This document shows positions 21,212-24,188 of a DNA stretch of 64,000 nt, piece by piece (position 1 is the first letter of the stretch; the number at the start of each line of letters is the position of its first letter). The notes under the pieces were generated by a model. That model had not been told where the DNA came from. It worked only from the letters and a program-made list of their open reading frames with translations, and searched no databases. The translations under genes were made by a program, and so were the position numbers. The stretch is from Candidatus Heimdallarchaeum endolithica (lineage in GTDB: Archaea > Asgardarchaeota > Heimdallarchaeia > Heimdallarchaeales > Heimdallarchaeaceae). The stretch spans positions 1,664,001-1,728,000 of the forward strand of contig CP084167.1 in NCBI GenBank assembly GCA_021513715.1, given 5' to 3'.

Positions 21212-23379
21212 ACACTCAAAAAAAACTAATATTTAAAAAAATTTGCTGTAACCAAAAGTAATTTCTAATTGATTATTGATTCATGTTTTGTACAATAGAT
21301 TAATCACTGTTGGGCAGGGTATTACAAAAACATTTACTTATATAATTAAAATTGAGGTAAATGATTATGTTGAATTGAAAGTGAAACTTTCCTCTACTAG
21401 GGATTAAAATGGAATGCAGTTGCAAAGTTACATACGGAATCGTTTACTCTTGTACAACTAAATTATATATCAGAGACACTACACAAGACCTTGAATTCTT
21501 TATTGAATCTGATGATATACTGACATCCTCGTTTATCTATGACCCAATCTTCTGGTTTAGTCCAACGGAATAAAACAGCAGAGGTGATATAAATTAAGAA
21601 GAGATTAGAGTTCTACATTTTTTTCTTTTTTTTATTATTTGCTTATAGTAGCAGCATGAACTTGAGCATAATTAATAGTCGTTATAGAATTGAAGGCGAC
21701 AATTATAATGAATTAAAACATGAAAGGTCTTCATTTATCACAGACAACAATTTTAGGGATAGTAATTATAAAGAAAAAAAGAAACAAAACTTAAATAATA
21801 ACCAGCTGAATAAAAAAATAAAATTAGAAATAAGTTTTGATATTGTTTTTGATAAAGATTGGATAGTTAATGAATCAATTACAGTTGTAGGAAAAACTAT
21901 ATTACTAAAAGGAAATCTAATTGTAAACTCAACAGGGAATATCACAATAGAGAATTCTATTTTAATATTTAACTCTTCGTGGATAGTTAATAATGGAAAT
22001 CTTGTAGAAGATGCTTTACAGATTAGAATTCTTGGAGGTAAAACTATTTTTATTAATACTACAATATCAGTTTTAGTTCCATTTGTAGAATTAAGTTATA
22101 ATCAAATACGTAATAATTACTTTACGATAAGCGCAGAAAAATCTTCCCAGTTGTACTTTATAAACAGCGAATTGAAACATTTAGGAATTATAGATAACAT
22201 AAATAGTGGGATAAATGTTAACCAAATAAGTGAGTTAAAACTAGAAAATTGTAATATTAACGCATTATGGGGAATTCTTTATGCTAATAATACAGACAGG
22301 GTTGTAATCAATAATTGCAAATTGAACTCAAGATTGAGGGGTGATATGAGATTTGGAACAAATTATACCATGGTAACTCTAAATGGTGGAATTGAACATA
22401 TAATTACACACAACAATTTCTTTAGAAATGAGGAAACAAATTCTATAGAATATTCAGAAGAAAAAATAGACAGGCTTGTTATCTTGAATTCGAAGAACAG
22501 TATTATTTCAGAAAACACATTTAAACAAGCAAGATCTTATGATAATTCCTTTGGTCTAAATGTTAGAAACTGCACTTCAACGATAATTAATAACAATAAA
22601 GGGCCATCAATGCACATGCATTTAAAAGGTTCTAGAAATATTACAATAACACAAAATCACTTTGGGCAACTAAAGGTTCATAATACCTACGAATTGTTAC
22701 TTAAATTCAACATAGCTGAAAATCTGGAACTCGCTAACTGTTCTTATATAAACGTCAATTACAATATTTTTAATGCTACAAAGGAAAGAATCTATGATAT
22801 AGGATCTTGCGTTTTTCTAATGGGTTCAAATGAATATATTAATATTTCATGTAACATTAATGCAGCACCTATTTTGGAAAGTTCATTTTATACAATAACA
22901 GCAGAAATAAAGAACAGTTTCTTTTATATGAATAATCAAGTTGGCCCCATATATATAATTGATTATCCAGATTTCTATGAGAAAGTGTTTAATTTCTCAA
23001 TAGAAAATAAAAGAGAAATAGTAATAGAATACCCAAAACTATCAGTAAATCAATATTACAGTTATAACAATCAAGGTAATTTCTATTCAGCCGATATACA
23101 AGCAAGTTTAGAAAATATATTAGAAGATTTTAACAACGATGGTATAGGAGATGCATCTTTTCCAGTATCGTCCGTTCCTATAATAATGGATGAAAAGCCA
23201 TTAATGTTCCCCATTACATTTAATAATAATTTCGATCAAAAAGCCCCAACTCTTAATCATAAAAATTATTTTCCAGGTGGCGATAATTCTATTTATGATA
23301 CCATCTATGCTAGTGTAACTGACAATTTTATGTTGGCAACAATCGTAGTAGCTTATGATTTAGGTTCATCTGGTTCATG

Positions 23380-23749
23380 AGTTGAAATTTTACGTAATTT
23401 CTTCAGGACTCTCCCCAACCAATCAACAAACTTAGCGAAAGTTGTGAAGACTAGCTTAAGAGAACATGAAAGACACAGTCTTAATTAAGTTCTCTAAGGG
23501 GTTCATCTCCTTACCCCGGGCACTCATAACTCCCAAAGGGAAGACCGGGTGTCGTAGGAATGAAACCTACGTCTTTAAGCATCTAGCTCAAGACACTACA
23601 TAAATGAGAATTAAATATATAAAGATAGCTGAAAAGTTGTTACACTCCCCAATATTTTGTATGTTTTATTTATGCAAATGTGTTTCTGGTTGTTATTGGT
23701 CTAATAACTCCACAAACTAAAAATTTAGTTTTTTACGTAAAAAAGTATC
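23380..23749. mobile_element. 370-bp non-coding insertion element with subterminal inverted repeats and a structured core
   Basis: TCATG direct repeat at 23375-23379 and 23750-23754; both ends read CATGAG-N6-TTTTACGTAA inward; no ORF; precise removal repairs the host gene. Confidence 0.88.
23424..23596. ncRNA. Putative multi-stem structured RNA inside the 370-bp element
   Basis: GC-richer than flanks. Stems: GCTTAA/TTAAGC (23454/23575), GAGAAC/GTTCTC, AAGAC/GTCTT, GGGGT/ACCCC or AAGG/CCTT, CCCGG/CCGGG, TCCC/GGGA, CGTAGG/CCTACG. A minus-strand TTTATATA box lies at 23616-23623. Confidence 0.6.
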
Positions 23750-24037
23750 TCATGGACTTTTAAGACTATGATAAAGGACGAATTTACAGGAGAATTTATT
23801 GCAAAAATTCCTAAATTGACACAAGGGATAAATAAATATTATTTTATTGTATGTGATATTTTTGGGAACAAATTGAAAAGCGAAATTTATACTTATAAGG
23901 TTCCGACCATTACTTCACAGACTTCATGGCAAACCTTGAATTCCTTTCTAGGAGTATTACTTTTAATTTTTTATCTGAAAAAAACTAAACTCAAAAGGGC
24001 TCAAAAATGTTAAACATTTTATTTTTTTCTCTTAGAC

Positions 24038-24147
24038 TAGTACTTCCGCAATAAGTTGACCGATTTCTATAGGTTAAAATTATAGGCGTTCATACTATCA
24101 TTGAGGTATTCTCAATTCATACTTTATGAGATAATTCGGAAGTACTA
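24038..24147 (+). mobile_element. 110-bp MITE, copy 2
   Basis: Same TIR; TSD TTAGAC (24032-24037, 24148-24153); 4 substitutions versus copy 1. Confidence 0.95.
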
Positions 24148-24188
24148 TTAGACAGAACAATAAGAATGAAAACTCAAACTCTTCAAAG

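Follow-up and report, generated by a model that had tools for sequence, protein, structure and literature searches.

A protein-free mobile element of Candidatus Heimdallarchaeum endolithica, probably a standalone omega-RNA derivative of TnpB-only elements

The mini-element and the gene it interrupts

The window, the whole stretch of 64,000 nucleotides analysed here, belongs to the closed 3.33-Mb genome of Candidatus Heimdallarchaeum endolithica, whose sole same-genus neighbour is Ca. H. aukensis. Within it, a protein-free mini-element splits a host gene in two. The features, numbered by position in the window, are the following.

21656 to 23376, plus strand: 5' part of the host gene, encoding a large protein without a Pfam family (open reading frame and orthologue)
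23754 to 24013, plus strand: 3' part of the host gene, continuous with the 5' part in H. aukensis
23377 to 23753, minus strand as sense: whole mini-element, including both AT core dinucleotides (copy counts and empty site)
23733 to 23753, minus strand: left end, consisting of the AT core, a 7-nt spacer and the subterminal motif TTTTTTACGTAA, common to resident TnpB-only elements
23624 to 23732, minus strand: spacer, poorly conserved (22-58% identity in diverged copies)
23616 to 23623, minus strand: archaeal TATA box (TTTATATA), conserved across copies and of predicted activity
23377 to 23595, minus strand: predicted omega-RNA (right-end RNA) scaffold of about 219 nt (matches to covariance model R1 and consensus fold)
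23522 to 23527, minus strand: AUGAGU, 5' strand of a predicted pseudoknot, pairing with the terminal ACUCAU
23500 to 23508, minus strand: AGAUGAACC, conserved scaffold motif, near-invariant across genera and the same in 24 of 26 copies
23377 to 23397, minus strand: right end, with the subterminal motif TTACGTAAAA, the terminal ACUCAU (3' strand of the pseudoknot) and the AT core (alignments)
23752 to 23755, minus strand: predicted transposon-adjacent motif, CCAT here and VCAT as the family pattern, of putative function
23357 to 23376, minus strand: predicted guide, host flank that a transcript would enter past the right end, its length of about 20 nt assumed (TnpB right-end RNA architecture; PMC10711439)

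The orthologous site of H. aukensis is empty, and there a 681-aa open frame reads ...GSSGSWTFKTMIK. The initial annotation had described a beta-helix gene that is split by the element and whose frame is restored by its removal. The empty site agrees with the split and the restored frame, whereas the beta-helix label was not sustained, no Pfam match having been obtained for the host protein at E<=0.01. The insertion and the end motifs had been correctly noted, as had the lack of any open reading frame in the mini-element. The net insertion was found to be 375 bp (23377-23753 including both AT).

Across 43 junction pairs, 27 from copies and 16 from related TnpB elements, AT was the sole sequence constant on both sides. 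The flanking bases beyond it are not duplicated, as seen at empty sites such as TTG-AT-ATG and TGC-AT-AAT, and a 4- or 5-bp target duplication is ruled out by these sites. The flanking TCATG repeats of the initial annotation thus reduce to AT. The target of the mini-element is near-palindromic, YCATGR. The mini-element is mobile and multi-copy: BLAST detected 18 full copies in its own closed genome (16 near-full and two more diverged), plus several remnants, and eight full copies in H. aukensis. CAT is terminal at the right end in 27 of 27 copies, and ACTCAT in 17 of 17 aligned RNAs. Several remnants retain only 92 bp of the right end, and some end at an internal CATG. Longer elements with the same internal sequence were not found in the two Heimdallarchaeum genomes or in eight metagenome contigs, the partial matches being remnants or nested insertions.

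At the left end, 19 of 27 copies have the same base after AT as the target (p 0.02), a match that is missing from the 16 TnpB elements and could be a trace of post-cutting repair. The first inner base or bases match the target flank at L004, L009, L015, L026, L033, L035 and L038, and at L035 the match extends to seven bases. A separate 110-bp MITE with inverted ends AGTACTTCCG lies at 24039-24150 of the window, with 20 close and six distant copies in the genome, and a 1.05-kb IS encoding a 307-aa protein is present in about 70 copies genome-wide. The genome paper describes repeats and transposases as abundant; TnpB is absent from its main text (PMC8813620).

The structured RNA and its predicted promoter

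Besides the two Heimdallarchaeum species, covariance model R1, built from the minus-strand RNA at 23595-23377, was found to match in 14 further genomes, each from a member of the Heimdallarchaeaceae. Among the 24 R1 loci examined, 15 lie directly 3' of a TnpB gene, seven are protein-free and two lie at contig ends. The TnpB at those 15 loci measures 463-492 aa where intact and is 35-46% identical to the resident TnpB. The tnpB-linked RNAs that reach their end finish in AACTCAT, followed by variable flank, and the seven protein-free relatives, of about 350 bp, carry a left end and a TATA box. The R1 score reaches 52 bits for RNAs directly 3' of tnpB in other genera, and the right-end RNA of the resident 483-aa elements scores 16-32 bits with filters off. 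The mini-element RNA has the same orientation as the RNA 3' of tnpB in relatives, and in three RNA subtypes AUGAG, GAUGAA, GAGU and ACUCAU show little or no variation. By sequence comparison, the mini-element RNA is thus almost certainly a homologue of TnpB omega-RNAs. The Rfam search returned no match to a curated model (best E 2.4), and no match to the core pattern was found in viral contigs.

The GC-richer multi-stem core of the initial annotation was confirmed: it folds well (z -5.7 on the plus strand and -3.9 on the minus strand) and has 42% GC, compared with 28% in the spacer. Single-sequence folding, with z of -3.4 on the plus strand and -2.2 on the minus strand, does not decide the strand. 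The consensus fold is -45.7 kcal/mol on the minus strand versus -36.7 kcal/mol on the plus strand, and on the minus strand most substitutions retain pairing via G-U. The minus strand is taken as the RNA sense because homology and consensus fold decide the strand. A plus-strand IscB-type RNA with a 5' guide was rejected, the homologues following tnpB in the minus-strand sense.

In 17 RNAs of three subtypes, AUGAGU and ACUCAU are 99% paired. Compensatory pairs were observed as AUGAUU/AAUCAU in resident TnpB elements and as AUAAGU/ACUUAU in L239. The predicted AUGAGU/ACUCAU pairing fits a TnpB omega-RNA pseudoknot, and a pseudoknot at the corresponding position is required for IS607 TnpB activity (PMC10711439). 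The ACTCAT at 23522-23527, earlier noted as matching the left element end, is therefore present as described and best read as part of an intramolecular pseudoknot, close to the kissing loops that had been raised as a caveat. Few pairs co-vary within the mini-element family (4 of 56), and across genera the pair test scores no better than its shuffles, there being hardly any variation in the pairs.

The 9-mer at 23500-23508 had been read as a loop that matches its own target. It is indeed identical to the host sequence at 23363-23371, and this identity is at chance level: among random CATG sites, a 9-mer match within 30 nt was obtained for 11% with the RNA core and for 26% with the whole element. 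The loop reads GGTTCATCT in 24 of 26 copies, and the flanks of the copies are unrelated. The 9-mer match to the flank belongs only to the copy studied, the other copies sharing 3-7 nt. The loop is thus invariant over insertions at unrelated sequences, an outcome that the initial annotation had itself named as refuting its reading, and it is the reverse complement of AGAUGAACC. The AAGG/CCTT stem that had been drawn to close it breaks in diverged copies and is on the strand opposite to the RNA.

The minus-strand TATA box at 23616-23623 is present as annotated and starts 29 nt before the first RNA hairpin. In seven of seven protein-free relatives, from four other genomes, the spacing is 27-29 nt, and in one genus the tnpB promoter is joined straight to the RNA. 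A sigma-70 promoter scan is ill-suited to archaea. In the diverged copies L017, L018, L035, L038 and L074, the RNA is 74-94% identical, compared with 22-58% for the spacer. These patterns suggest that the RNA is probably transcribed as an omega-RNA.

Resident TnpB elements, the flank as proposed guide and the possible mode of movement

The mini-element and the resident TnpB-only elements have a common end grammar: CAT, seven bases, a T-run and TACGTAA or a variant of it. Families with these ends comprise a 1.87-kb element that encodes only a 483-486-aa TnpB, a pair with a 504-aa TnpB and a 445-448-aa TnpB family. In the TnpB sense, they have flank-CAT on the left and TCAT-flank on the right, which fits the minus strand of the mini-element. 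The same grammar bounds a second protein-free family of about 360 bp, whose right end matches that of the 445/448-aa TnpB elements over about 160 nt (76-81% identity). This second family is located at G000:C1:2939786-2940150 and six more sites and inserts behind TCAT. In H. aukensis (L036:1501-1800), a mini-element carries, at an internal CACTCAT site, a nested TnpB element from the 445/448-aa family.

Resident and cognate TnpBs retain the RuvC D, the alternative E and D, and TnpBs of the clade resemble Cas12f/TnpB structures. Intact TnpBs of the same clade are present in the genome, their own RNAs scoring just 6-32 bits with R1. Neither the two Heimdallarchaeum genomes nor the eight metagenome hits yielded a TnpB gene with exactly this RNA subtype; the nearest RNAs linked to tnpB, at up to 52 bits, come from a sister clade whose identity to the resident TnpB is about 43%. 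The mini-element RNA may thus be orphaned in its own genome, and, judged from these comparisons, the chances that one of the genome's TnpBs uses it today are about even.

Upstream of the element, C occupies position -1 in 25 of 27 copies, and T at -2 was observed in 1 of 25 mini-elements, versus a background of 35%. In sites tallied by hand and not fully independent, families whose right tip reads TCAT have T before the upstream CAT at 1 of 55 sites (35% expected, p ~2e-9), and the family with a TGAT tip is preceded by TCAT at 9 of 10. Such apparent avoidance of the element's own tip fits the pattern that a TAM would need to spare the occupied site; the bias could instead come from the transposase. 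The flank beyond the right end differs between copies. Since the RNA is probably homologous to TnpB right-end RNAs, guidance would be expected from this flank, and for cutting rather than insertion. By analogy with TnpB, the mini-element RNA would therefore match its own target after all, through the flank.

The best explanation, with a probability of roughly 0.82, is that the mini-element is a non-autonomous, TnpB-less standalone ('ghost') omega-RNA derivative of Heimdallarchaeaceae TnpB-only elements. On the minus strand it would be laid out as left end, TATA box, scaffold, right end and flank, with the flank serving as the presumed guide of a predicted transcript. From the TATA box, transcription would begin near 23595, pass the right end and continue into the flank; a TnpB acting in trans would bind the scaffold and take about 15-20 nt of flank as guide; and it would cut the empty site left by excision (VCAT plus flank, CCAT here), repair from the sister chromosome then restoring the element. 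The occupied site would be spared because the right tip reads TCAT. Restoration of an element by cutting of the empty allele and repair has been demonstrated for IS605 and IS607 TnpB. In this form, two proposals of the initial annotation are supported: that the element is non-autonomous and mobilised in trans, and that it carries, with a promoter of its own, a structured RNA belonging to an RNA-guided system.

It is improbable that the RNA, of the same origin, is now a passenger in a MITE-like deletion derivative that spreads by its ends and whose RNA the genome's TnpBs do not use. The lack of a cognate TnpB element in the genome and the remnants reduced to the right end are consistent with such a passenger, but RNA and TATA box are far better conserved than the spacer in diverged copies, the upstream bias is present in the mini-elements themselves (1 of 25) and the exact spacing of promoter and RNA recurs in relatives.

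As to movement of the standalone omega-RNA element, searches of the genome for IS110, IS607 TnpA, tyrosine integrase and Cas1 gave no element-linked enzyme. No IS607 TnpA over the cut-off was found in the genome or next to any element, and no second gene or transposase upstream of about 25 TnpB elements of the family. The genome has one Xer-like integrase, and its Cas1 matches are CRISPR-level. Its two serine recombinases reach 24-42 bits where the IS607 TnpA cut-off is 110; the catalytic domain comes first in these proteins, which are encoded by genes of the host. This pair of small host enzymes, whose catalytic motifs are intact, was detected in 28 of 30 genomes of the family and in 0 of 52 other genomes of the class, a pattern that amounts to one family-level coincidence. 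Both are family-restricted and syntenic (L050:3229-3951 and L051:4349-5098). Two genera in which no TnpB of the clade was found have a recombinase orthologue that has lost the catalytic motif (L208, L209). At 29 serine-recombinase loci, no TnpB neighbour was found and the gene was never inside an element. For one recombinase, a fold predicted from its sequence alone reached pLDDT 52, too low to be of use. Two neighbours of copies, a serine recombinase at a distance of 2.4 kb from a partial one and a Y1 gene beside another, were set aside as accidental; in the latter case (L052, G000:C1:925129-925880), the mini-element copy splits the sole IS200/IS605 Y1 transposase gene of the genome, following codon 2.

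At one locus (G000:C1:2922001), the segment between an internal ATGAGT and the right tip was observed to be inverted in two metagenome assemblies (L081, L078). The dinucleotide core, the inversion and the CATG-ended remnants fit a serine-recombinase crossover. Movement by a crossover of this type at AT, like that of IS607 at GG, with the enzyme encoded elsewhere, has perhaps one chance in two; of all parts of the system, the enzyme behind insertion at AT has the best claim to novelty. A further-reaching and rather unlikely proposal is that an undescribed transposon family ceded its transposase to the host, so that a conserved chromosomal serine recombinase would move the elements via AT and promoter-bearing ghosts would supply the resident TnpBs with many guides. 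If true, host-mobilised ghosts would parallel, in prokaryotes and in a lineage near the eukaryotes, the arrangement of Fanzor and its ghosts.

A conventional DDE-transposase MITE with a 2-bp AT duplication, for which the RNA would be a separate matter, is very improbable. The ends are roughly symmetric (GAG...CTC), the target is near-palindromic, DDE-linked TnpB and Fanzor elements with inverted repeats are known, and the left-end base match of 19 of 27 copies would suit it. However, that match is missing in the 16 TnpB elements, the tips of the two ends are poorly matched, the genome's abundant IS families have other ends, and crossover chemistry is the better fit for the internal inversion and for deletions whose ends lie at internal sites containing AT. 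No autonomous IS with matching terminal repeats was found, the repeat catalogue showing these ends only on TnpB-only and protein-free elements. The initial annotation's IS110/IS1111-type bridge or seek RNA element, with loops pairing target and donor DNA, is scarcely credible: it would account for the subterminal inverted motifs, the short core, the internal structured RNA and the one 9-mer match, but the loop is constant over unrelated targets, the 9-mer match is expected by chance, the IS110 recombinase (PF02371) has no match in the closed genome and the mini-element RNA appears homologous to tnpB-linked RNAs.

Comparison with known systems

The former bridge-RNA candidate turns into an OMEGA system that is well delimited and open to experiment. 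Sequence allows predictions of RNA boundaries, pseudoknot, guide start and TAM (VCAT) across a large Asgard TnpB clade that is uncharacterised. Protein-free copies are at least as numerous as TnpB copies and arose in at least two RNA subtypes and in a second TnpB family. These genomes are thus a natural test of why standalone omega-RNAs persist, for which the literature gives the reason as unknown (PMC10691335).

With IS110/IS1111 elements, the mini-element has in common a structured non-coding RNA within a small element and subterminal inverted repeats; unlike them, it has neither a target-specifying loop nor an IS110 recombinase, and its RNA is probably homologous to TnpB scaffolds. Similar to the IS607 family (IS607, ISXfa1, CboIStron), it shows a dinucleotide at both junctions and at the empty site, an upstream motif that includes the core, short subterminal motifs and, in its TnpB relatives, a right-end RNA with a pseudoknot. 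However, its core is AT instead of GG, its ends are nearly symmetric and no IS607 TnpA over the cut-off accompanies it.

An Asgard TnpB clade has been described as aCas1-associated, Cas1H-Asgard (PMC10691335). In Thorarchaeota, relatives of the cognate TnpB (36-41% identity) terminate with the described GTTCACTCA and adjoin a large divergent gene. In most of the loci examined (L181, L182, L184; Thorarchaeota-like), a protein of 1,500-1,700 aa is encoded divergently beside TnpB; it had no match among Pfam or PDB sequences and is possibly the described aCas1. Unlike in Cas1H-Asgard, this 1,500-1,700-aa partner has no homologue in the genome or the family studied here.

Closest in kind are the protein-free RNA elements. 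For IS200/IS605 OMEGA systems, omega-RNAs that stand alone and PATEs that bear an omega-RNA have been published (PMC10691335; bioRxiv 10.1101/2023.03.14.532601), and they too are protein-free, mobilised and equipped with transposon ends, their omega-RNA being thought to be used in trans. The mini-element differs in that inverted, AT-rich motifs set around a duplicated AT form its ends, in place of subterminal hairpins with TAM/TEM; these ends are also unlike the IS605 ends of the genome, whose sole Y1 tnpA is split by a copy. The Fanzor1 ghost Spu-1 of Spizellomyces punctatus (PMC10432273) likewise has protein-free copies, inverted ends, a conserved C or CA before the left end and, at the right end, an omega-RNA that has diverged but can still be used, with no transposase found. 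The TnpBs here also share with Fanzor an alternative catalytic Glu before the zinc finger. Unlike ghost Spu-1, the mini-element is archaeal and has a 219-nt scaffold with its own TATA box, as against about 75-90 nt, and the RuvC-I motif is DLG in the TnpBs here and DPG in Fanzor. Overall, standalone omega-RNAs, PATEs and Fanzor ghosts were known already; what is new here is a probable archaeal case with its own predicted promoter and symmetric ends around an AT core.
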